Part shown: positions 3,980 through 48,746 of the stretch, piece by piece
Numbering within the stretch: the first letter of the stretch is position 1
Layout of the letters: the number at the start of each line of letters is the position of its first letter
Origin: a candidate division Zixibacteria bacterium SM23_73_2
Lineage (GTDB): Bacteria > Zixibacteria > MSB-5A5 > SM23-73-2
Reading direction: 5' to 3'
Assembly (NCBI GenBank): GCA_001304315.1
Contig: LJUW01000004.1
Span: forward strand, 1,018 to 65,017
Length of the DNA: 64,000 nucleotides
Program-made: the position numbers and the translations under genes
The notes under the pieces: generated by a model
Told to the model about the DNA's origin: nothing
Databases searched by the model: none
What the model saw: only the letters and a program-made list of their open reading frames with translations

Positions 3980-5134
3980 ATGAAAACAAAAAATGTCGAT
4001 CTAAAAAAAATCAGAGACGAGTTCCCCTTTACCAAAAATAATATAATCTTTTTAAACCACGCCTCCTTTGGACCCATTCCCCAGTGTACTTTAAAAGCAA
4101 AATTGGAGTATCTGAAATACGCCTCATTACAAAAGACCCAGAACATCGACCAGATGTGTTTTGATATTCTGGATGATACACGGAAAAAAGCAGCCAAATT
4201 GATCAATGCAAAAACAGAGGAGATCGGGTATTCCTTCAATACCTCCTATGGTTTGAATTTCGCTGTCTGGGGGCTGGATTTAAAACCAGATGATAAAGTC
4301 CTTCTGTCCGATGTGGAATTCCCGGCAAACGTCTATCCCTGGCTCAATCTCAAAAGCAAAGGGGTGAAGATAAAGCTTGTCCCCAGCAAAGACAGATTTT
4401 TCGATATAGATAAATTCAAAAAATCCATAGATTCAAAAACCAAGGTTTTATCCCTAAGTTATGTCCAGTTCCTTAACGGTTTTAAAAACGATCTGGAGGA
4501 GATCGGAAAAATATGCGAAAAGAAGGATATTTTCTTTGTGGTGGACGCAATTCAGGGAATAGGGAATTTAAATTTAGATGTCAGGAAACTGAAAATTGAC
4601 TTCTTAAGCACCGGAGGAGCAAAGTGGCTTTTATCCGGGCTGGGCACCGGATTTTTCTATTATTCCAAAAATGCCAAAAAAAAGCTTAACCCCTCCTTTT
4701 TCGGATGGATGGGTGTTGACTGGAAAGTAGATTTCACCGATCTATTGAATTTCGATTTAGACCCCTTTGAAGACGCCCGAAGATTTGCAACCGGCTCCCA
4801 CCCTTTTGAAAACGTAATCGCCATGCACACCTCCCTGGGATTTCTTTTAGATATCGGGATAAAAAAAATTGAAAGACATAACAAAAAGCTTCTTGACATC
4901 CTGATAAATTATTTAAAAGATTCCACCTATAAGATAAAAAGTGACCTTTCCCCCAGGCATAGATCCTCTATTTTATCCTTCACCTGCAAAAACAGCAAAA
5001 ATCTGTTCGAGAAACTCACACAGAAGAAGATAATTTCCTCTTACCGGGAAAAAGCGATAAGAGTATCCCCGCATTTTTATAATACAGAAGAAGAAATAGA
5101 GGAGCTGATTAAAATTTTAAAGAAAAACGCATAA
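3980..5134 (+). CDS. Class V aminotransferase / cysteine desulfurase-like PLP enzyme
   Basis: 'FLNHASFGPIP' N-terminus and fold-type I PLP layout typical of aminotransferase class V (SufS/CsdA/isopenicillin-N epimerase-like). Confidence 0.65.
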   Translation: MKTKNVDLKKIRDEFPFTKNNIIFLNHASFGPIPQCTLKAKLEYLKYASLQKTQNIDQMCFDILDDTRKKAAKLINAKTEEIGYSFNTSYGLNFAVWGLDLKPDDKVLLSDVEFPANVYPWLNLKSKGVKIKLVPSKDRFFDIDKFKKSIDSKTKVLSLSYVQFLNGFKNDLEEIGKICEKKDIFFVVDAIQGIGNLNLDVRKLKIDFLSTGGAKWLLSGLGTGFFYYSKNAKKKLNPSFFGWMGVDWKVDFTDLLNFDLDPFEDARRFATGSHPFENVIAMHTSLGFLLDIGIKKIERHNKKLLDILINYLKDSTYKIKSDLSPRHRSSILSFTCKNSKNLFEKLTQKKIISSYREKAIRVSPHFYNTEEEIEELIKILKKNA

Positions 5135-5137
5135 AAT

Positions 5138-5190
5138 AACCTCTCCCTTTTCCCCTCTCCTTTTTAAGGAGAGGGACAGGATGAGGTAAA
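5138..5190. repeat. REP-like hairpin repeat, copy 1 ('cccctctcc-ttttt-aaggagaggg-acaggRtgaggtaaa')
   Basis: 10-bp perfect stem 'ccctctcctt/aaggagaggg'. Nearly identical copy at 5294-5345; degenerate copies at 5688-5730 and 5879-5922. Confidence 0.7.
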
Positions 5191-5293
5191 ATCCGATCAG
5201 GTGAAAAATAAACCCTATCCCAAAGTTTTTTCACATATCCCCGTTGAGTAGAGTATTAAGTCCTCCAAAGAAATAAATCTCAATATTACTAAT

Positions 5294-5345
5294 AACCTCT
5301 CCCTTTTCCCCTCTCCTTTTAAGGAGAGGGACAGGGTGAGGTAAA
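5294..5345. repeat. REP-like hairpin repeat, copy 2
   Basis: 51/52 nt identical to copy 1, including the flanking 'aataacctctccc'. Confidence 0.7.
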
Positions 5346-5393
5346 CCTCGCTAAGAAACAAAAATGATTTCTCGAAAAAATCAGGGACAGGTC

Positions 5394-5417
5394 ATATGAC
5401 CTGTCCCAGTAAGGCTT
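5394..5417. repeat. 24-bp perfect palindrome 'gggacaggtcatatgacctgtccc'
   Basis: Perfect inverted repeat. Shares 'ggacagg(tc)' with the repeat cores and with the MITE-like element at 24652. Confidence 0.6.
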
Positions 5418-5687
5418 TGCAGAAAAAACCCCCTCCAAGAGATTAAAGAAAGGCGGGATAATTTTCCTTTTAAATAAAAACTATTATACTAATCACCCCA
5501 GGGATGTCCCTGAGAGGGCACTGTACCTGAACTTACTTCAGATCCTGGATTTTTGATATACGGACTCTTTCTTTCAAACATCATACTTGTTTTGTTTATG
5601 ATTTTAAGGTTTACCTTTCTTTTTACAGATAAGTATACGCCCAGAACACTTTTAGGTTCCAAAAATCTTTCAAAAACCTCACTCACA

Positions 5688-5730
5688 AATCCCTCTCCTT
5701 TAGAGGAGAGGGATAACAGGGTGAGGTGTA
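5688..5730. repeat. REP-like hairpin repeat, degenerate copy 3
   Basis: 'ccctctcctttagaggagagggataacagggtgaggtgta' keeps the stem and the 'cagggtgaggt' tail. Confidence 0.5.
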
Positions 5731-5878
5731 TCAGCTAACTTCGATCGCTTTTAATGTTTTTGGAAATCAATAAGATATGGCGGAGTTTAAATGAGCTCCA
5801 TCAAAAAGAACGACTTAAAAGCTAAACTTTCCTCTACAAAAAAGCTAATCTTTAGGGGAAAAAAATCCAATCCCATCT

Positions 5879-5922
5879 ATTCCCCTCTCCTCTTGAGGAG
5901 TTGGGCAATGGGTAAGGTTAAA
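5879..5922. repeat. REP-like hairpin repeat, degenerate copy 4
   Basis: 'tcccctctcctcttgaggagttgggcaatgggtaaggttaaa' has a partial stem and a 'ggtaaggttaaa' tail. Confidence 0.4.
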
Positions 5923-5992
5923 TAAACAAGCTTCCTCACCTTAAGCCTGCATGATTTTTATCTGGTATACAAAAATATCAAACATTTTTCTC

Positions 5993-6021
5993 TTGACATA
6001 TTTCAAACATTTATGGTAAAT
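5993..6021 (+). promoter_or_regulatory. Sigma-70-like promoter candidate for the RRE-S2P-HlyD gene
   Basis: TTGACA at 5993-5998, 17-nt spacer, then GTAAAT/TAAATT at 6016-6022. About 25 bp upstream of the ATG at 6046. Confidence 0.35.
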
Positions 6022-6045
6022 TAACAAAAACAATCCAAAAAGAAA

Positions 6046-8711: not shown

Positions 8712-9038
8712 ATGCTTAAAAAAATCTTAAGCCTTCTGATCTTCTTAATCCTAACTTTTTCACTCATCTTTTCGGTCTATCCCGGTCCCGGAGAGGAACC
8801 GGACATAGAGGGTCATCCCTGGAGCGACACTCGGGGTACCATTGCACCAGTGCCAGAGGAACACGTTCGCTTGATCTTTGTGTGGAATTTCAACCCGGTG
8901 CCTCATTTCACCTTAATGTTTTTCAAGAACAATCAAGTGCCCTCGCAGCAAACCCAAAAGGTAACAAAAAGAGAGGTCAGTAAAGGCAAAGACGAAATTT
9001 CTCAGAGACATAAAGATCTGAGAAAAGAAATTAAATGA
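8712..9038 (+). CDS. Small membrane-anchored/secreted protein (108 aa), translationally coupled to the sigma-54 activator
   Basis: ATG at 8712 preceded by GGAGGG. The ORF track's TTG start at 8694 is less likely. N-terminal hydrophobic segment 'ILSLLIFLILTFSLIFSV', then a P/G/E-rich region and a basic C-terminus. Stop overlaps the next start (ATGA at 9035). Confidence 0.45.
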   Translation: MLKKILSLLIFLILTFSLIFSVYPGPGEEPDIEGHPWSDTRGTIAPVPEEHVRLIFVWNFNPVPHFTLMFFKNNQVPSQQTQKVTKREVSKGKDEISQRHKDLRKEIK

Positions 9039-11902
9039 AAACCAAAGCGAAGAAAAACGCCTCAAGTTTCTGGTCAAGAATTGAGGCTGCAGAAGAGTTA
9101 ATCCGAAAGAAAGCTTACAAGCAAGCTTTGGCGGATATTAAAGAGTTGAAGCAGGAACAGAAGCATTCCCCCTTCAGTGAAGAGGGTGCTGCTATATCCT
9201 GTCTTTTAGCTGATTCACTGTCCAATCAGGGGAGATACAAGGAAGCTCTTCCCGAAGCCAAAAACGCCTATCACTTTTTCAAAAACACCTTAGAACACAA
9301 AAGGATAGCTGAAATCCTGTGGATTTTAGGGAACATCTATCTTGCCACCGGTTTGCTTAAAGAGGCAGAGAATCAGATAAGGGATGCAATAACCACTTAC
9401 AGAAGATCAGACGATATCAAAGGTATTATAGCTGGATACAACAAGATAGCCCAGATATACTTCATTCAATCAGATTTTACCAAATCAGAGGAATATCTTA
9501 AGGAATCGATTAGGTTATGCGATGAGATAGATTATTATCAAAAAAAAGGTGGGCTTTTACGTAATTTAGCCACTGTCAATACCTTACAGGGAAAAATCAA
9601 TCAGGCTGAAAAGAATTTATTAAAAAGCATTCTGATTAACCAGAAACTGAAAGACGAAATATTTTTAGCCCAGGGTTATCTCTCCCTGGGATACGTCAAA
9701 TTCTTAAAAAGAGACTTTACTCAATCCTATAATCTCTATCAAAAGGCAAAAAAACTGATTGAGGAAAACAACCTCACCAGGGATTTAGCCATCTTTTGTG
9801 AATACTCGGCGGAGCTGTCTTTAGCACAGGGAGATTATAAAAAAGCAGAAGAGCTCTGCAATCAGGCGCTTTCCTTAATAGAAAAAAACGCTCCTGAAGG
9901 AGACATCGCTTCCCAGACCAACAGGATTTTAGCTGAGCTTAAAACAGCCCAGAACCAGCTCGATTCCGCTTTAGAATTCTGCGAAAGGTCTCTGGAGGTA
10001 TCAATATCCTTAAACGAGAGAATAGAACAGGGAACCGTATACCGTATCCTGGGAGAGATCTGGTCGAAAAAGGGGCAGCAAAAAAAAGCCTTAGACTATT
10101 TCTCCAAAAGCATCGACCTGTTTCAAAAGTTGGGCACCGATTACGAGTTAGCCAAAACACTTCTTAAAGCTGGAAAAGCAGGTTGTTTTGATTACAAAAT
10201 ATCTCTTGGTTTTCTAGAAAAAAGCCAGAAGCTTTTCACCGAGATAAAAATACCTTATCTCTCTGCAGAGGTCCAGCTTTCTAAGGCTCATCTGTTCCTG
10301 GAAGAAAACGATATGGACCAGGCTGTAGATACTCTGGATTCAGCCCAGGCTCTTTTCGCCCAAATCTCAGACGAGGATAAGCTTAAGGAAGTTGAAACCG
10401 CAAGAGAGAAAATCGAGAATCTGCTTTCAGAGAAATCACTGTCAGTGGAGAACGAATACCGGTTGTTCAGAAGATATCTCTCAGAGGGTGAGTACCGGGG
10501 GCTCAAGGGAGGGAGCCTAAAGGAGATTCTGAACATACTGGGTAAAAGGGTGGAAGCGGATAGAGGATTTATACTATTGAAGAATGGCGAAGAGGAATTG
10601 AAAGCTGTTTCCTGTTTTAATATTCAACCTGAGGATGCAAGCCGATTATTCTCAGAACTGCCCGATTCTCAAAAGCTAACTCAACAGCCGGTAATCAGCA
10701 CCAGCGCCTTTAGAGTGAATGGAGAACAGATCAAGGGTTTCCTTTTGATCCCCCTGAACTCCGGGGAAAAAGTAGAAGGGTATCTGTATCTCGATAGAAA
10801 TGGGCGGATATTACCAAAAACCTTCTTTACCCAGACCCAGTTTAACTTCGCTGTTGCATTTGGTGATGTGATCGGATTGAAGTTAATCGAGCTCGAGAAA
10901 AAAAGGCTGGAACAGGATAATCTTAAGTTAAGGCAACAGCTTGAATTAACCCACGCCTTTCCAACAGTTATAACTCAAAGTCCCAGGATGCTGAATATCC
11001 TGTGGAAGCTCTTGCAGGTCAAAGACTCCAGTCTTCCGATATTACTTGAAGGCGAAACCGGAACCGGCAAAGACTTGATTGCAAAGGCCATCCATTATTC
11101 ATGCAACAAAAAAGAAGGTAAATTCGTTGCCATAAACTGCGCAGCTTTACCCGAGCCTTTATTTGAGTCAGAGCTTTTCGGACACAAAAAGGGCTCTTAT
11201 ACCGGGGCAGCCTTTGACAAAAAAGGTCTTCTGGAGGAAGCTGACGGAGGAACTTTATATCTGGACGAGCTGGCGGACATAACCCCATCCTCCCAGATAA
11301 AGCTTCTTCGGGTTTTGGAAAACAAGGAATTCACCCGTCTGGGTGAAACCACTCTCAGAAAAGTGGACATCCGGATAATTACCTCCACCAACAGAATAAT
11401 GAAGGAGGAGGTGGAAAAAGGTAACTTCCGAAAGGATCTATTCTATCGTCTTAACGCCGTTCATATCAGGATTCCAACCCTTAAAGAAAGAAGGGAAGAC
11501 ATTCCTATCCTGGTGGATCATTTCATCCGAAGCTACTCGGATGATCCTTCACTTTTCTCCAATCTGGTACCTTTGATTCTGGAGATCTTCACCAACTACG
11601 ACTGGCCCGGAAACATAAGAGAGCTGGAGAACGAAGTCAAAAGGATTTTAACCTTCAACAAAGGCAAAGAACAAGCTCAGCTGGAGGGACTCTCCGACAA
11701 GTTCACCATGCCGGAGGAGCTGATAAAAGAAAAGCTCTCATTGTACGACCGCATAGCTTTGCTGGAGAAGCAATACATCATAAAAGCTTTAAACGAAAAC
11801 AACTGGGTAAAGAAAAAAGCTGCTCGCACGCTCTCCATCCCCGAATCCTCCTTGAGGTTCAAGATGAAGCAGTACAAAATATCTACTCCCAAGAAAAAAT
11901 AG
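9035..11902 (+). CDS. Sigma-54-dependent transcriptional activator with N-terminal TPR sensor region (TPR - GAF-like - AAA+ - Fis HTH)
   Basis: - About 450-aa TPR-like N-terminus.
- AAA+ 'GETGTGKDLIAKAIH', and 'GSYTGA', a variant of the GAFTGA sigma-54 contact loop.
- 'PGNIRELEN' and a C-terminal HTH_8 'KKAARTLSIPESSLRFKMKQY'. Confidence 0.85.
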   Translation: MKTKAKKNASSFWSRIEAAEELIRKKAYKQALADIKELKQEQKHSPFSEEGAAISCLLADSLSNQGRYKEALPEAKNAYHFFKNTLEHKRIAEILWILGNIYLATGLLKEAENQIRDAITTYRRSDDIKGIIAGYNKIAQIYFIQSDFTKSEEYLKESIRLCDEIDYYQKKGGLLRNLATVNTLQGKINQAEKNLLKSILINQKLKDEIFLAQGYLSLGYVKFLKRDFTQSYNLYQKAKKLIEENNLTRDLAIFCEYSAELSLAQGDYKKAEELCNQALSLIEKNAPEGDIASQTNRILAELKTAQNQLDSALEFCERSLEVSISLNERIEQGTVYRILGEIWSKKGQQKKALDYFSKSIDLFQKLGTDYELAKTLLKAGKAGCFDYKISLGFLEKSQKLFTEIKIPYLSAEVQLSKAHLFLEENDMDQAVDTLDSAQALFAQISDEDKLKEVETAREKIENLLSEKSLSVENEYRLFRRYLSEGEYRGLKGGSLKEILNILGKRVEADRGFILLKNGEEELKAVSCFNIQPEDASRLFSELPDSQKLTQQPVISTSAFRVNGEQIKGFLLIPLNSGEKVEGYLYLDRNGRILPKTFFTQTQFNFAVAFGDVIGLKLIELEKKRLEQDNLKLRQQLELTHAFPTVITQSPRMLNILWKLLQVKDSSLPILLEGETGTGKDLIAKAIHYSCNKKEGKFVAINCAALPEPLFESELFGHKKGSYTGAAFDKKGLLEEADGGTLYLDELADITPSSQIKLLRVLENKEFTRLGETTLRKVDIRIITSTNRIMKEEVEKGNFRKDLFYRLNAVHIRIPTLKERREDIPILVDHFIRSYSDDPSLFSNLVPLILEIFTNYDWPGNIRELENEVKRILTFNKGKEQAQLEGLSDKFTMPEELIKEKLSLYDRIALLEKQYIIKALNENNWVKKKAARTLSIPESSLRFKMKQYKISTPKKK

Positions 11903-12579: not shown

Positions 12580-12900
12580 AAAATTTGGAGTGCAATAACT
12601 TGTTATTGCATGCATCCCACCAAAGGCGGGATTGAGTTATCGGAGCCATAAAGGCTCCTCTACGCGTAGCAGAAGATTTATCCTTCTGCTGTGAACTATT
12701 AACCATTAACCATCTGCCATTGTGTGCCCGCCAGGTCCCCCCTGGCCGGACGGGCTGACCTGGTGGGAATAACTGGTCGGGTCAGGGGATCCGACCAACA
12801 CAGGCTCAATTTACCCAGTGCTGTCGGGAGTTACCTCCCGACAGAAAACATCAGCCTGCCCTCTCAGGGGAGAATGCTCCTGACGCCACCATTCAACTAT
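12580..12900. ncRNA. GC-rich multi-hairpin island; candidate structured ncRNA or nested repeat cluster of unknown class
   Basis: - About 58% GC in a roughly 40% GC genome, in a convergent intergenic gap.
- At least 6 strong hairpins, e.g. 'tgcaataac-ttg-gttattgca' and 'tgtcgggagg-tta-cctcccgaca'.
- Shares 'cccctggccggacRggc' and 'caggtcccc' with the MITE-like elements. Confidence 0.25.
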
Positions 12901-12901
12901 C

Positions 12902-13918
12902 CTATTTTTTAACCCTTTGCCCCGAACCTTTATCAAACCTATGAATCTTTCTCTCTTCAAAAACCAACCAAACCTCCTCCCCCTCTCTAATTTTCTCCTC
13001 AGGCTTAAGCCTTACTGATACTAAAATGTCCGAAACCTCAACGTAAAGATAATTATCCGAACCCAGAATCTCTATGACGCTCGATTTTCCTTTGATCGAA
13101 TCTGGAACCTCTTTTAAAGATAACTTAAAATCCTCAGGTCTTATTCCAACTGTTACATTTTTATCTTTAACAAAGGGAACAATCTCTCCTGGCAAAAAAT
13201 TCATCGTGGGAGAACCGATAAAACCTGCGGTGAAGATATCCTCCGGTTTCTCATAAACATCCTTGGGTGTGCCCACCTGCAGTATCTTTCCATCCTTAAT
13301 CACCGCCAACCTGTCAGATAAGGTCATCGCCTCTGCCTGGTCATGGGTAACGTATATGATTGTTATATTGACTTTTTTATGGAGCCTTTTCAGCTCGGTT
13401 CTCATCCTCAGTCTCAGCTTCGCATCTAAATTTGACAAAGGTTCATCCAGAAGCAAAACATCCGGCTCCAAAACCAAAGCCCTGCCCAGAGCGACTCTCT
13501 GACGTTGACCACCTGAAAGCTCTCGGGGCAGCCGTCTCCCCAATCCCTCCAACCTTAAAAGATCCAGAGCCCACCCGATCTTTTCCCTTTTCTTTTTTCC
13601 CTCCATCCTTCTTATCTTCAAACCGAATCCAATATTAGCCTCGACTGACATATGAGGGAACAAAGCATAACTCTGAAAAACCATGGAGATGTTTCTTTTT
13701 TGAGGAGGAATATCATTAACCAATCTTTTATCAATGAAGATTTTTCCAGTGCTGATCTTTTCCAGACCAGCAATTAACCTCAAGGTGGTCGATTTGCCAC
13801 AGCCTGATGGACCAACCAGGGTCAAAAACTCCCCATCCCCAACTTTCAGATTAATATCATCTACTGCCTTGACCTCTCCGAAAAGCTTACTCAAACTCTC
13901 CAATCTTACTTCAGCCAC
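12902..13918 (-). CDS. ABC transporter ATP-binding protein, MalK/UgpC-type with C-terminal TOBE domain
   Basis: Walker A 'GPSGCGKST', signature 'LSGGQRQRVALGRAL', Walker B 'LLLDEPLSNLD'. About 110-aa C-terminal regulatory (TOBE/MalK_C) domain. Confidence 0.85.
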   Translation of the reverse strand: MAEVRLESLSKLFGEVKAVDDINLKVGDGEFLTLVGPSGCGKSTTLRLIAGLEKISTGKIFIDKRLVNDIPPQKRNISMVFQSYALFPHMSVEANIGFGLKIRRMEGKKKREKIGWALDLLRLEGLGRRLPRELSGGQRQRVALGRALVLEPDVLLLDEPLSNLDAKLRLRMRTELKRLHKKVNITIIYVTHDQAEAMTLSDRLAVIKDGKILQVGTPKDVYEKPEDIFTAGFIGSPTMNFLPGEIVPFVKDKNVTVGIRPEDFKLSLKEVPDSIKGKSSVIEILGSDNYLYVEVSDILVSVRLKPEEKIREGEEVWLVFEERKIHRFDKGSGQRVKK

Positions 13919-14009
13919 GATCTTCTCTGATTTTTAAGTTCCTATTAGTTCCCCTGAATTCTTGATGCATACTCACCAGCACATAATCCGAGGCTATTGC
14001 TCAACTCCC

Positions 14010-14145
14010 CTGGCCGGACAGGCATCGTGTCATTCTGACCCCCGCTAACAGCGGGAGGAAGAATCTCATTTGCGAAGCATTCTTTGAATTTCCTACGATA
14101 TAAAAGACCCTTCACTTCGTTCAGGGTGACACTTGTAGACTTTGA
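14010..14145. repeat. MITE-like GC-rich palindromic element, copy A (between permease and ATPase genes of the ABC operon)
   Basis: About 85% identical, in inverted orientation, to 29104-29262. Contains 'gtcattctgac', the hairpin 'cccgctaacagcggg' and 'gaagaatctc...gcattctt'. The spurious ORF 13945-14157 is its translation. Confidence 0.65.
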
Positions 14146-14200
14146 TAATAATCTCATTCTCTACTTTAACTTCCGCTAAAAGAATTTTCGTTTGTCAAAC

Positions 14201-15025
14201 TCATTTCACCGCTCCCGCGGTCAAACCGGTTCTCATATATCTCTGAACCGCAAAGGTAAATATAATAACCGGAATGCATATGAAAAGAGAGATCGCAGCT
14301 ATGAAATTCTTCTGGGGTGACCAGGTTAAAATTCTTAAAAGGTAAACTGGCAGAGTGCTTTCCGTTCCCTGAAACATAAGAAAATAAGCGAACACGAACT
14401 CATTCCAGGACAGAAGAAAAGTATAGATAGCAGCTGCTCCCAGCCCCGGTAAAGCCAAAGGTACAAGAATCCTCAAAAATGAATATGCCCGGGAAGCCCC
14501 CAATACCTGTGACTGTTCCTCCAGATCCCTGGGGATCGACTCGAAAACCCCTTTAGCGATGTAAATGGTATAAGGCAAGGATAAAAGAGTATGAGCTAAG
14601 GCTACCGAGATCACCGGGGGCAGAAGGGATAAAGGCTTTTTAAAAAACTGCTCCGCCACCGGGATCACCGCAGATATGTCCGGGAACAACCGTACAGACA
14701 GAAGAAAGAAAAGCAAAATTGCCAAACCCGGGATTTTAAACCGGGCTAAGGCGAAAGCTGATGGAACACCCAAGAAAAGACAAAAAGCCACAGTTAAAAA
14801 ACCAACCTCAAGACTGACAATTCCGGATTGCAAGAAATCATTTCTAACCGATAAGGATTCGAACATCTTGAAATTTGGTTCAAAAGGCCAGAAAGGTTCA
14901 GGATACCTCCCTCCGGTGACCACGCTGTCCCGATCCGATACTGAGTACTTAAAAAGGATGAAGATGGGGAAGATTATGAAAAAAATGGTAATTGCGATAA
15001 GAATTATTTTTAATAAGTTTCCCAT
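14201..15025 (-). CDS. Carbohydrate ABC transporter permease (MalG/UgpE-like)
   Basis: 6 TM helices and the EAA loop region 'AKGVFESIPRDLEEQSQVLGAS'. Confidence 0.8.
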   Translation of the reverse strand: MGNLLKIILIAITIFFIIFPIFILFKYSVSDRDSVVTGGRYPEPFWPFEPNFKMFESLSVRNDFLQSGIVSLEVGFLTVAFCLFLGVPSAFALARFKIPGLAILLFFLLSVRLFPDISAVIPVAEQFFKKPLSLLPPVISVALAHTLLSLPYTIYIAKGVFESIPRDLEEQSQVLGASRAYSFLRILVPLALPGLGAAAIYTFLLSWNEFVFAYFLMFQGTESTLPVYLLRILTWSPQKNFIAAISLFICIPVIIFTFAVQRYMRTGLTAGAVK

Positions 15026-24603: not shown

Positions 24604-24660
24604 GTGAAAAGTTTGATTCTATCTGATTTTCACCGAAAAGAAAAAAACAATGTGGTGGAC
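24604..24660 (+). other. Duplicated 5' fragment of the downstream metallophosphoesterase gene
   Basis: 24611-24651 is about 80% identical to 24848-24888 ('ttgattctatctgattttcaccgaaaaga' versus 'ttggctctgtccgattttcacggaaaaga'). The ORF 24604-24828 reads through the MITE-like element. Confidence 0.5.
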
Positions 24661-24812
24661 AGGTCCCCTCAGGGTGACCGAGAACTCACATTTGTCATTC
24701 TGAACGGAGCAAAGCGGAGTGAAGAATCTCGGTTTTATGCGGTTTGGGAGAAGAGATTCTTCGTCCTACGGACTCAGAATGACAATTCTCGGTCAGCATC
24801 CCCTGACCTGTT
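24652..24812. repeat. MITE-like GC-rich palindromic element, copy C (about 160-bp near-perfect long hairpin)
   Basis: Arms 'ggacaggtcccctcagggtgaccgagaa' and 'ttctcggtcagcatcccctgacctgttc'. Internal 'gtcattctga...tcagaatgac' and 'gaagaatctc...gagattcttc'. Motifs shared with copies A and B. Confidence 0.65.
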
Positions 24813-24840
24813 CACAAGTCAGATTTGAAAGGAGAAAAAG

Positions 24841-26413: not shown

Positions 26414-26447
26414 GGGACTTTTTTGCCCAAAGCATTCAATAAAAATG

Positions 26448-26531
26448 CGGAGGGCGCAGGATTCGAACCCGCAAGTCCTTACGGACGGTGGATTTCAAGT
26501 CCACTGCCTTACCAGTTAGGTCTAGCCCTCC
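26448..26531 (-). tRNA. tRNA-Ser (anticodon UGA)
   Basis: Minus-strand read 'GGAGGGC...GCCCTCCG'. 7-bp acceptor stem, anticodon loop 'CTTGAAA', long variable arm 'CGTCCGTAAGGACTTGC', T-arm 'GCGGGTTCGAATCCTGC'. CCA not encoded. Confidence 0.85.
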
Positions 26532-28957: not shown

Positions 28958-29103
28958 TCATAACAAAAGGCTAACTTTGTATAGTTAATCCCATGCTATG
29001 AATTTAATATAAATTCTCTATTTGTCAATAAGCCGATCAACCTATAGTAATTACGGTCTATGAAAAGTCAAATTTGTAAAGTGAAATTTTGTAGCTGTTG
29101 CCG

Positions 29104-29262
29104 AAGTCTACAAATGTCACCCTGCCTGTCCCTGGCAGTCAGGCCGGGAAACGAAGTGAAGGGTCTTTTATTTCGTAGGAAATTCGAAGAATGCTTCGCA
29201 AATGAGATTCTTCCCCCCGCTGTTAGCGGGAGTCAGAATGACACAATGCCTGCCCAGCCAGA
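29104..29262. repeat. MITE-like GC-rich palindromic element, copy B (inverted relative to copy A, with 27-bp internal insertion)
   Basis: Reverse complement aligns to 14010-14145 ('cccgctaacagcggg', 'aagaatctcatttgcgaagcattctt', 'aaaagacccttcacttcg'). The spurious ORF 29060-29302 is its translation. Confidence 0.65.
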
Positions 29263-29397
29263 GGTATTGATCAACATCCCCTTTTGTAGTGTAAAGTATT
29301 AGTTGATATAATTAATACTTTAAAATGAAATGCGGTAAATCAAACAACAATAAAAAGCAAAGGATCTACTCTTTTTTGATACTACTCTTTAGTTCGC

Positions 29398-46107: not shown

Positions 46108-46203
46108 CTACCTTCTTCTGGTGGTCTTCTTCTTAGTAGCCTTCTTCTTGGTAGTTTTTTTCTTAGCGGTCTTCTTCTTAGTAGCCTTCTTCTTAGCTGG
46201 CAT
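46108..46203 (-). CDS. Candidate 31-aa lysine-rich peptide 'MPAKKKATKKKTAKKKTTKKKATKKKTTRRR'
   Basis: RBS 'GGAGGTGA' 5 nt upstream of the ATG. Sits 24 bp downstream of the GxxExxY gene and ends just upstream of a terminator. The sequence is a KKKAT/KKKT repeat resembling histone H1-like tails. Confidence 0.3.
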   Translation of the reverse strand: MPAKKKATKKKTAKKKTTKKKATKKKTTRRR

Positions 46204-46943: not shown

Positions 46944-48746
46944 TCAGCGGTGTTTTTTCAAAAGACGCTGAAGTTCCACCCGGTGCATATTAGCTTCTTT
47001 AGCTGCGCGGGAGATGTTGTTTTTATTTTTCTCTAATATGTTTTTGATAAATTTCTTTTCAACTTCCTCTACGACTTTCTTTCTTAAAGTCTTCAACTCC
47101 TGATAATTTTCTGGAATCTCAATTCCAGAGTCATCTCCAGAATTATTCAGGATATTTTTCGGAAGATCGTCTCTGGTTATCAGAGGATTTTTCGCTAAGA
47201 TAACCGCGCGCTCGATAATATTCTCCAATTCTCTGATATTACCTGGAAAATGATAACGGCTCAAAAGATTTAAAACTTCGTTATCTATTCCCTCGATTTT
47301 CTTCCCCAGTTTTTCCGAGAAATCACGGGCGAAGCTCTCAGCCAAAGGTGCGATATCCAGTCTCCTTTCACGTAAGGGAGGAAGTTTCAGATTAATAACG
47401 TTAATCCGGTAATACAGATCTTCCCTGAACTCCTCTTCCTTTACCCTCGAGAACAGATCTTTATTGGTGGCAGCAATGATCCTTATATCCGATCTTTTAA
47501 CCTTATTGGAGCCCAGGGCTTCGAACTCATGGGATTGCAAAAAGCGAAGAATTTTTACCTGTAAAAGAGAGCTCATCTCACCGATCTCATCCAGAAAAAT
47601 TGTTCCGCCATTGGCAATCTCGAACTTGCCCGGTTTTTTTTGGGTAGCCCCGGTGAAAGCGCCTTTCTCATATCCGAAAAGCTCTGATTCTAAAAGGGTT
47701 TCTGGAATTGCGGCACAGTTGATGGTTACGAATGGTTTCTTAGAACGGCCGGAGTTAAAATGAGTGGCTCTGGCCAAAAGTTCCTTTCCGGTACCTGATT
47801 CTCCCTCGATCAAAACCGTGGCATCGGTATCGGCAACATCCGCTACTGTCTTTAATATCTCCACCATCTGGGAACTGTTGCCTATGATCTCATCGAACTC
47901 GAATTTCTCCCTTAGATCCTCCAGAAGTTTTTCCTGCGAGTGCTTGAGCTCGGAAAGAAGAAGGTTATTCTCCACTGCCTGAGCTATTCTCTCTGCCAAA
48001 GAGATCAAAAGATTTGCATCCTCGGAGGAAAAAATAGAATCGGTATCTGCGTTCTCCAGATATATCGCTCCCAAAACCTGCTCCTTGGATTTGAGCGGAA
48101 CACAGAGAACCGATCTGGTGGAATCGGAAAGCTCATCTTTTTCATCCCCGGATTCCGAATCCAGGATATTAGCCATGCAAATCGAATTGCCAGTGGAGTA
48201 AACATTCTCCATAATCAATGCTTTGATTTTATCATCGAACTCCTCCAGGGTTTTTCTCTCCTTATCCTTGCCGATAGTGAAAATCGGGGAATTCTTTTGA
48301 TTGGATATTTCCAAAAGTGCCTTCTCCGCAGAGAAAAGATCAAGCAAAGAATCCACAACCATATCCAACAGGATATTTATGTCAGTCTCAGAGTATATCG
48401 CAGTTGAAAGCTCATAGAGTATCCGGTAGGTTCTCCTCTCATCCTCGGTCTGCTTGAAATCGGTTTTGAAGCGCTGGTAATCCCTTAAAAGTTTAGCCAG
48501 GTTATCGCTTACCTCGTTCTCCAGATTAGAAAATTTTTTCTCAACCGAATCCAGGCTATTTAGAGATTTATCCAAAAGGCTTTGTGATTTTTTGGATGAA
48601 AGATTGGAGTTTAATACCAAGATCCCCTCGCGAAGGTTCAGAAGATCTTTGTAAATCTTTTTGAGATTTTTTAAGCTTACAGACTTTAAAGAAGAAAGGT
48701 TTTCTTCTAACCTGAAAGTTCTCTGGTCAAATTTTGATTTTTGCAT
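46944..48746 (-). CDS. Sigma-54-dependent Fis-family transcriptional activator with N-terminal GAF domain
   Basis: Coiled-coil then GAF N-terminus. AAA+ '[15 protein letters not shown]', intact 'GAFTGA', 'PGNIRELEN', C-terminal HTH_8. Confidence 0.85.

Follow-up and report, generated by a model that had tools for sequence, protein, structure and literature searches.

Intergenic palindromic elements in a Zixibacteria genome: nested mosaics probably built around pairs of Ssn-related TGTC hairpins

What are the three GC-rich palindromic elements that lie between genes in a 64,000-nucleotide stretch (hereafter the window) of contig LJUW01000004.1 from candidate division Zixibacteria bacterium SM23_73_2, and how did they come to be there? 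A first-pass annotation made from the sequence alone had taken them for copies of one dispersed family resembling miniature inverted-repeat transposable elements (MITEs). We call them copy A (~14.0 kb), copy B (~24.7 kb, the 24652 copy) and copy C (~29.1 kb, the 29104 copy); the body of the annotation had used the letter B for the 29104 copy and C for the 24652 copy, differently from the order in its title, and its statements are consistent when read in that way. In our reading, the elements are probably non-coding nested mosaics, in the style of bacterial interspersed mosaic elements (BIMEs) and MITEs, assembled around pairs of CGTC/TGTC hairpins related to those recognized by the GIY-YIG nuclease Ssn.

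All three elements share a core unit of 28-53 nt that reads, in order, TGTC tag, ATTCT, GA, a variable stem-loop, GA, AGAAT and a CTC tail. Every element holds two such units in inverted, head-to-head orientation with the tags facing outward. In folds of the unit as single-stranded DNA (ssDNA), the 4-nt tag stays unpaired, a lower stem of 5 bp leads through a 2x2 GA/GA internal loop to an upper stem-loop, and 3 nt are left as a tail. The window has four matches to the pattern GTCATTCTGA-N(5-27)-GAAGAATC, where 100 shuffles predict 0.00. A relaxed search added a fifth unit in copy A, with the covarying stem ACCCT/AGGGT, and a sixth in copy C with the same stem, split by an insert; all six window units start with TGTC. 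Together with the inverted match between copies A and C and the long hairpin of the 24652 copy, both described below, this count leaves the elements as real as the annotation had held them to be, in the places where it had put them, though their extents had to be redrawn (Table 1).

The unit is not confined to this genome. Exact matches to TGTCATTCTGA-N(8-25)-GAAGAATCTC, which fixes 21 conserved bases, occur in 62 viral-contig stretches of IMG/VR, some of them arrayed, and in more than 119 stretches (a lower bound) from GTDB species representatives that belong to well over ten phylum-level groups. Among the matches listed are Chloroflexota, Clostridia, Bacteroidota, Ignavibacteria, Planctomycetota, Verrucomicrobiota, Acidobacteriota, delta- and gammaproteobacteria, Rickettsiales, Bdellovibrionales, groups of the candidate phyla radiation (CPR) and Omnitrophota, as well as the isolates Helicobacter marmotae, Chryseobacterium hispalense and Sedimentibacter hydroxybenzoicus. 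The unit is found facing both ways, on phage contigs and in contexts unrelated to one another, and sequence conservation ends at its edges. Its stems covary. The lower stem has 11 complementary variants, and 94 of the 173 units with a stem other than ATTCT are perfectly complementary, compared with a mean of 15 (maximum 25) when the partners are shuffled; the middles of the units form terminal stems of 2-8 bp compared with 0-1 in shuffled sequence, and among the A/C copies GCT..AGC is exchanged for GCC..GGC. Conservation that is bounded by the unit, combined with covarying stems, points to a structure-dependent recognition site rather than to common ancestry of the flanks. Dense arrays were also seen, with six units in 800 bp in H. 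marmotae (NZ_NXLR01000033.1; L133, 2127-2925; fetched loci are cited by L numbers), seven in 1.2 kb of a viral contig (L052, 4077-5241) and a tandem array with a 59-bp period elsewhere (L058, 150-424).

What might recognize such a site is suggested by the genes beside it. Ssn is a family of small single-domain GIY-YIG nucleases (cd10448) that bind the NTS hairpin (CGTCATTCCCGCG..CGGGAATCY) and cut just upstream of it, on ssDNA only and in one orientation only; NTS and related hairpins, the SRMs, flank ssn genes, and for 71% of ssn homologs there is an SRM close by (Chenal et al., Nat Commun 2025, PMC11893778). We searched the loci carrying the core unit for GIY-YIG genes with a strict regular expression (2 loci) and then with a small local hidden Markov model (5 loci, 4 of them adjoining units). 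Of 119 genome loci, four have a small GIY-YIG gene (Pfam PF01541) no more than 120 bp from a unit, and a fifth has one at a distance of 3.6 kb. Wherever a full-length homolog was present, two to four units were found within 350 bp of the gene (7/7 loci: L140, L095, L148, L160, L197, L207 and L208); the last three, of which L208 is from Anabaena, were found through protein similarity and are bracketed by two to four units in the same way. The proteins encoded by the flanked genes are single-domain and about 93-96 aa long, with units on one or both sides, and in 25 of the 120 closest homologs the called open reading frame (ORF) continues into a unit, so that the protein ends in tails like DSSLRSE, EILRxAQND and CHSE. 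When viral contigs were searched at the protein level for the GIY-YIG gene, 4 loci came up, of which 3 were partial; this is too small a number for a statistic on the reverse association. Clustering of neighboring genes (421 units at 181 loci) brought out only phage structural genes of related viral contigs and no universal neighbor.

Some of these loci show arrangements of interest in their own right. In one lineage, seen in L140 (2994-3368) and in L197-L207 (gene at 1001-1291), the Ssn-like gene and its units lie between Aminotran_3 and CbiA/AAA_26 genes; if these are bioA and bioD, as they appear to be, the gene and its units would have inserted within a biotin operon. A 638-bp segment of GIY-YIG gene plus units is duplicated in tandem in L148 (1675-3452). 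The viral contig IMGVR_UViG_3300045988_146177 (L193, 1764-2000) carries a GIY-YIG homolog (49% identical) followed not by GA-bulged units but by the tagged hairpins CGTCATTCCGAACTTGGTTCGGAATCTT and CGTCATGCTGAACTCGTTTCAGCATCTT, which have a classical continuous stem; hairpin type may therefore vary between Ssn subclades.

If units of this kind are the common core, the question becomes what surrounds them in the window and whether the surroundings move. Copies A and C are inverted copies of one another (130 nt at 90% identity ungapped, 153 nt at 85% gapped), in agreement with the figure of about 85% that had been proposed. They share a shell that runs from GGGGCTGTTGCCGAAGTCTACAAA to AATGCCTGYCCGGCCAGGGGAGTTGAGCAACAGCC, with terminal inverted repeats (TIRs) of ~11 bp in the family alignment; the consensus ends are GGGGCTGTTGC... 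and ...GCAACAGCCCC, and copy C ends with (GTAG)CTGTTGCC on one side and GGGGATGTTGA (reverse complement) on the other. The shell of copy B is unlike this one and its arms are small hairpins themselves. Short core motifs occur in all three elements, as the annotation had said, but cccgctaacagcggg and aaaagacccttcacttcg, which it had assigned to all three as well, are common to A and C only. Thus, the three copies do not form one family at the level of the element: A and C are one composite family, sharing shell and spacer, and copy B joins them only through the core hairpin of ~30-40 nt. An internal insertion in the 29104 copy had also been noted. It is there, with a length of 25 nt rather than 27 bp, in the loop region of unit 2, and it is similar to the far-terminal module GCCTGYCC..GGCCAGGGG, in direct and not in inverted orientation; 4 of 6 copies of the A/C family have it. 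The elements are nested mosaics in which the shell, the inner hairpin pair and the mini-inserts are each separately present or absent in relatives.

A search of JGI metagenome contigs with a 22-mer from the A/C spacer yielded four more A/C copies (L185 from SMTZ1_10008985, L186 and L188 from Ga0111201_1040, and L187 from Ga0111201_1097), 85-98% identical over the element with unrelated flanks, as expected of the dispersed, mobile-looking family that had been postulated. Where metagenome contigs match the window identically, they end at 12818, 14057 and 14126, all within these repeats. Orthologous loci, which the annotation had recommended inspecting for empty sites, proved informative. At locus A, the spacer between the permease and ATPase genes of a sugar ATP-binding cassette (ABC) transporter measures 282 bp in the window, with the full element. 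It measures 183 bp in L189 (permease 89% identical), where the flanks and the outer shell are kept and exactly the 99-bp inner pair is missing. In L190 (permease 85% identical, spacer 32 bp) and L192 (73%, 25 bp) the site is empty. The difference from L189 may have arisen by insertion of the pair into a GTGTCAC site or by a deletion that the hairpins mediated, and the junction, with its 2-nt ambiguity, is compatible with both. In L191 (permease 77% identical), the permease-ATPase spacer of 112 bp holds a GC-rich hairpin element of another kind (..CGGAGCGAAGCCCCGATAAATCGGGG..; JGI Ga0568914_0011222, 4822-4935), so this intergenic site was colonised repeatedly.

The clearest case is locus C, which is empty in L210 and L211 (RlmD 72% identical). 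After removal of copy C and one TTTTGTAG from the window, the sequence aligns without gaps across the junction to both loci, each of which has a single TTTTGTAG. For copy B, L210 offers no such comparison, its contig ending inside the metallophosphoesterase gene. Copy C is thus a 187-bp insertion with an 8-bp target-site duplication, so that both TIRs and a duplication, features for which the annotation had advised looking, are present in this copy. Four further loci, L063-L065 and L209, were considered as relatives and set aside as uninformative on empty sites, being from the same organism (99.9-100% identity).

These TIRs, the clean duplication and the two empty sites, in a small non-coding element present in several copies, are what an ordinary MITE would show. 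One could then regard the elements as nothing other than internally deleted derivatives of a single DDE-type insertion sequence (IS), with the hairpins as incidental filler. We consider this unlikely since the inner pair is gained or lost apart from the shell, as L189 illustrates, and since copy B has the core in a different shell. Incidental filler would also not be expected to keep 21 bases exactly across so many phylum-level groups or to have covarying stems, and no parent IS with these TIRs occurs in any fetched locus.

Another kind of transposition deserves consideration because the inverted doublets, the dependence on hairpins and the high copy number resemble REPINs, that is, doublets of repetitive extragenic palindromic (REP) sequences. 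The hairpin pairs would then be moved by a single-copy HUH (IS200-like) tyrosine transposase located elsewhere in the genome, as are REPINs by REP-associated tyrosine transposases (RAYTs). RAYTs cleave GTAG tags, whereas the tag here is TGTC, and HUH 'peel-and-paste' transposition gives no 8-bp target duplication, whereas copy C has one. The recurrent neighbor of the units is a GIY-YIG nuclease gene, and the clustering across 181 loci showed no recurrent transposase, with no dedicated profile search for Y1-transposases (PF01797) made. The literature offers a point on either side: an analogy with IS200/IS605 has been drawn in a paper that also likens the NTS-ssnA-NTS layout to an insertion sequence (PMC11893778), and no RAYT or IS200 gene was found flanked by repeats of the CGTC type (Di Nocera, De Gregorio & Rocco, BMC Genomics 2013, PMC3733652). 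On balance, a REPIN/RAYT origin seems to us very improbable.

We therefore return to mosaics around Ssn-related hairpin pairs and to how they may work. Whenever the DNA becomes single-stranded, in replication, transformation or conjugation, each unit would fold into its hairpin, and the folded unit would be bound and nicked on the tagged strand by a small Ssn-type GIY-YIG nuclease. The autonomous form would be hairpin-ssn-hairpin (SRM-ssn-SRM), and gene-less pairs, such as those in the window, would be non-autonomous relics or derivatives of it. In the Zixibacteria lineage the pairs would ride in larger MITE-like shells; the 8-bp duplication at locus C suggests that a cut-and-paste or copy-in transposase which duplicates 8 bp moved the shell in trans. 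The data show directly the structure of the repeats, the covariation, the spread across phyla, the polymorphism of the insertions, the target-site duplication and, in other genomes, the linkage of such units to Ssn-like genes; the action of an Ssn-type enzyme on this genome's units and the enzyme that moves the shell we infer. A more specific version holds that the GA/GA-bulged TGTC hairpin is the recognition site of a distinct Ssn subclade of conserved specificity, spread horizontally as hairpin-ssn-hairpin through most bacterial phyla and their phages and overlooked by the published SRM definition, with orphan pairs hitch-hiking in unrelated MITE shells; we offer it tentatively, as a possibility with somewhat less than even chances.

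Several observations weigh against an Ssn-related origin. There is no GIY-YIG gene in the 64-kb window, in the four other A/C loci or in the loci of Zixibacteria relatives. The published degenerate SRM pattern, HGTCWYN(0-2)YYVSBRHN(0-5)WNVSBRGN(0-2)RNCYNB, searched with a regular expression validated on the NTS consensus, has 0 matches in the window and beside the Ssn-like genes examined; assignment to the SRMs thus rests on architecture and linkage and not on the published definition. The linked GIY-YIG proteins receive no NCBIfam assignment and only PF01541 from Pfam, and their sole solved relative is a weak match to UPF0213 BH0048. There is an ascertainment bias as well, since it was the motif that led to four of the seven linked loci, and the units do not always face the same way with respect to the gene (L148 and L160 are unlike L140, L095 and L207). 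As to the shell, a clear target-site duplication was seen in copy C only, the other A/C copies having matches of at most 4 bp or partial ones, and among 208 fetched loci there is no autonomous element with the shell TIRs, the TIR pattern being found only in MITE-like copies.

The genes around the elements bear on a last alternative. All three elements are intergenic, each between co-directional genes, and have a G+C content of 47-51% compared with 41.5% for the window; the 70-80 aa ORFs that cross them match no Pfam family and are thus translations of the repeat, so that the description of the elements as intergenic, non-coding and GC-rich stands. Copy A lies within a sugar ABC operon on the minus strand, between a second permease gene (14201-15025; its product is 100% identical to AMJ90_00790 of candidate division Zixibacteria bacterium SM23_73_2) and an ATPase gene (12902-13918). 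Copy B is flanked by a radical-SAM gene and a metallophosphoesterase gene, and copy C by the gene for an RlmD/TrmA-like methyltransferase, identical to AMJ90_00865 of the same bacterium, and an M1 peptidase gene; the contexts originally given for the 14010 and 29104 copies were accurate.

From their position between co-directional genes, all copies are probably transcribed. The 24652 copy, already described as one near-perfect hairpin, does fold as RNA into a single long hairpin with a minimum free energy of -72.5 kcal/mol (z = -5.4; none of 200 shuffles is as stable), and both stems of the unit covary. Such features would suit a structured cis-regulatory or small RNA as the primary identity of the elements, either an mRNA stabiliser or decoupler in the sugar ABC operon or a non-coding RNA gene. 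Copies A and C, however, fold as RNA at near the shuffle level (z = -0.8 and -1.7), and a promoter and terminator scan around copy A gave no signal within the element. In Rfam the window passes a gathering score only at a tRNA-Ser gene, and over the elements there is no match even at E <= 10, apart from a chance match of 16.7 bits to a snoRNA. Orthologous loci with the same operon and gene order are without the element, which also disposes of the suggestion that relatives might carry it as a conserved non-coding RNA, and a unit that occurs in both orientations, in phage contigs and in unrelated contexts is not what such an RNA would predict. Ssn, moreover, does not act on RNA (PMC11893778). 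An RNA as the primary identity thus appears remote. Since the operon is kept in L189 without the inner pair and in more distant relatives without the element, the element is not needed for the ABC operon. In Escherichia coli malEFG, REPs act as mRNA stabilisers or decouplers, and a comparable regulatory side-effect of copy A on the ABC operon is possible; any effect on the mRNA would be secondary. The tRNA-Ser gene (anticodon TGA; 26447-26531, minus strand) has the metallophosphoesterase region on one side and the M1 peptidase gene on the other.

Table 1. Positions in the window of the three elements, their hairpin units and associated repeats.
Feature	Position	Strand	Description
Copy A	13990..14155	-	A/C-family composite, 166 bp, ABC permease/ATPase spacer; from alignment, inverted repeat and comparison with L189
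Copy A unit 1	14028..14067	+	TGTC, ATTCT, GA, CCCCCGCT-AAC-AGCGGGAG, GA, AGAAT, CTC; ssDNA fold -9.9 kcal/mol, z = -4.3
Copy A unit 2	14104..14131	-	TGTC-ACCCT-GA-ACGAAGT-GA-AGGGT-CTT; lower stem covaries relative to unit 1
Copy A inner outward-tagged pair	14031..14129	.	99 bp, boundaries +-2 nt; exactly missing in L189
Copy A TIR	14132..14155 end		degenerate (GAGATTATTATCAAAG)
17-nt module in copy A shell	14007..14023	+	CCCCTGGCCGGACAGGC
Solo 17-nt module	12739..12755	+	in the loop of another hairpin (CCAGGTC...GACCTGG)
Copy B	24655..24815	.	161-nt near-perfect palindrome; own shell, arms GTGGACAGGTCCCCTCAGGGTGACCGAGAA / TTCTCGGTCAGCATCCCCTGACCTGTTCAC
Copy B unit 1	24693..24730	+	TGTCATTCTGA-ACGGAGCAAAGCGGAGT-GAAGAATCTC
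Copy B unit 2	24753..24784	-	TGTCATTCTGA-GTCCGTAGGAC-GAAGAATCTC
Copy C	29095..29281	+	A/C-family composite, 187 bp; without counterpart in orthologous loci L210 and L211
Copy C unit 2	29115..29167	+	TGTC-ACCCT-G...GA-AGGGT-CTT; 25-nt insert 29125-29149 in loop region
Copy C unit 1	29204..29243	-	TGTCATTCTGA-CTCCCGCTAACAGCGGGGG-GAAGAATCTC
Target-site duplication, copy 1	29087..29094	+	TTTTGTAG
Target-site duplication, copy 2	29282..29289	+	TTTTGTAG
Second hairpin repeat, four copies	5139-5190, 5294-5345, 5685-5727, 5877-5907

The window holds other repeats as well. The 17-mer CCCCTGGCCGGACRGGC has two matches in the window with 0 expected; a second occurrence outside copy A had been reported at 12741-12757, and it does exist, two positions to the left (Table 1). 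At this solo site, ~15 nt of the module are missing from the orthologous hairpin in L189. Small hairpins (CCAGGTC..GACCTGG, GGTCGG..CCGACC and TGTCGGGAGG-TTA-CCTCCCGACA) are clustered in a GC-rich (64%) segment at 12720-12845, downstream of the ATPase gene; the module GTCAGGGGAT of this cluster recurs in the shell of copy B, and several metagenome contigs of the same organism stop within the cluster at 12818-12819. A 900-bp intergenic region (5135-6045) carries four copies of a second hairpin, CCCTCTCC-loop-GGAGAGGG-ACAGGGTGAGGT. The corresponding pattern CCCTCTCC-N4-10-GGAGAGGG-N1-8-GGTGAGG occurs in at least 120 IMG/VR stretches and, among the matches listed, has no association with GIY-YIG genes and almost no co-occurrence with TGTC units; it is a separate cross-phylum hairpin family. 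A tandem repeat with a 15-bp period (GGTCTTCTTCTTAGTAGCCTTCTTCTT...) at 46123-46194 would encode a lysine-rich repeat on the minus strand. Finally, an inverted match of 87 nt at 72% identity links 11122-11208 with 47647-47733; one arm lies in a sigma-54 activator gene (9035-11902), and the match is probably due to paralogous AAA+ domains rather than to a repeat element.

Within the window, the elements are intergenic selfish or relic repeats that cause assembly breaks and spurious ORFs of 70-80 aa. Their value lies in the exact conservation and breadth of the unit and in its link to a recently discovered nuclease family, and in nothing specific to the window. What is new is a hairpin framework of 21 bases that both the published SRM pattern and Rfam miss and that nonetheless adjoins Ssn-like nuclease genes. 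A functional link would widen the known range and the sequence space of the Ssn ssDNA-nuclease/hairpin system, a system that matters to the study of genome dynamics and is of interest as a programmable tool for ssDNA, and the unit is a candidate substrate for new Ssn specificities. Should the unit be the site of its own Ssn subclade, it would rank among the most widely distributed and sequence-conserved protein-DNA recognition modules of bacterial repeats. It also explains junk peptides that are common in metagenome annotations (...DSSLRSE, EILRxAQNDK, CHSE...). The RepRanger paper (PMC12306157) holds nothing specific on the TGTC hairpin motif, and a text search of the literature with the motif strings returned only primers and vector sequences.

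It remains to place the unit among the systems already described. With MITEs, the elements share the TIRs, 8-bp duplication and empty sites of copy C, as well as small size, lack of coding capacity and presence in several copies; they differ in that no parent IS was found in the fetched loci and in that the hairpin-pair cargo comes and goes without the shell. Like BIMEs they are mosaics of several small palindromic modules. REPINs differ in carrying GTAG tags and depending on RAYTs, neither of which was seen with the window units.

A closer relative is the CGTC-REP superfamily (CGTC-1 to -4), whose members include Neisseria dRS3 and Rickettsia RPE-4/RPE-6 and which the 2013 survey reported from five phyla (PMC3733652). 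These repeats have a CGTC tag (TGTC or CCTC allowed, and often TGTC), a stem of 8-9 bp starting A-T at positions 1 and 2, a loop of 4-5 nt and a 3-nt tail with the consensus CCA. They mostly form head-to-head dimers with spacers of 20-100 bp that may hold small hairpins of their own, and they have no dedicated transposase (PMC3733652). The window unit agrees in its TGTC tag, unpaired in the ssDNA folds, its A-T-first stem, its 3-nt tail, the head-to-head dimers, the location between co-directional genes and the lack of a dedicated transposase. It differs in having a 5-bp stem, the GA/GA step and a variable upper stem instead of the continuous stem described, in ending with CTC or CTT rather than CCA, and in that the GA-type variant occurs in many more than five phyla and also in viral contigs. 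The window stem begins A-T, T-A, and a nine-position stem with a loop of 3-4 nt is formed only in the shortest variants elsewhere (middle of 8-9 nt).

The second close relative is the SRM. NTS, CGTCATTCCCGCGMAVGCGGGAATCYRG, is the longer form of dRS3 (PMC11893778), and like it the window unit is a directional hairpin with an unpaired 5' GTC tag and the identical termini GTCATTC...GAATC, in tens to hundreds of mostly intergenic copies. Both have a variable, dispensable loop: in NTS the identity of the loop is dispensable and loop extensions are tolerated (PMC11893778), in keeping with how the upper stems vary here and with the 25-nt insert. GA-type units elsewhere also flank small single-domain GIY-YIG genes. 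In contrast to NTS, the stem of the window unit is broken by a conserved tandem GA/GA internal loop and the published pattern is unmatched; the upper stem-loop has 8-25 nt, or up to ~50 nt with inserts; and the window contains no ssn gene, Zixibacteria and most phyla reported here standing outside the mainly Pseudomonadati emphasis of that paper. Thus, by its architecture and its linkage to GIY-YIG genes, the unit is a variant of the SRM and CGTC-REP kind that lies outside the published operational definition of an SRM.

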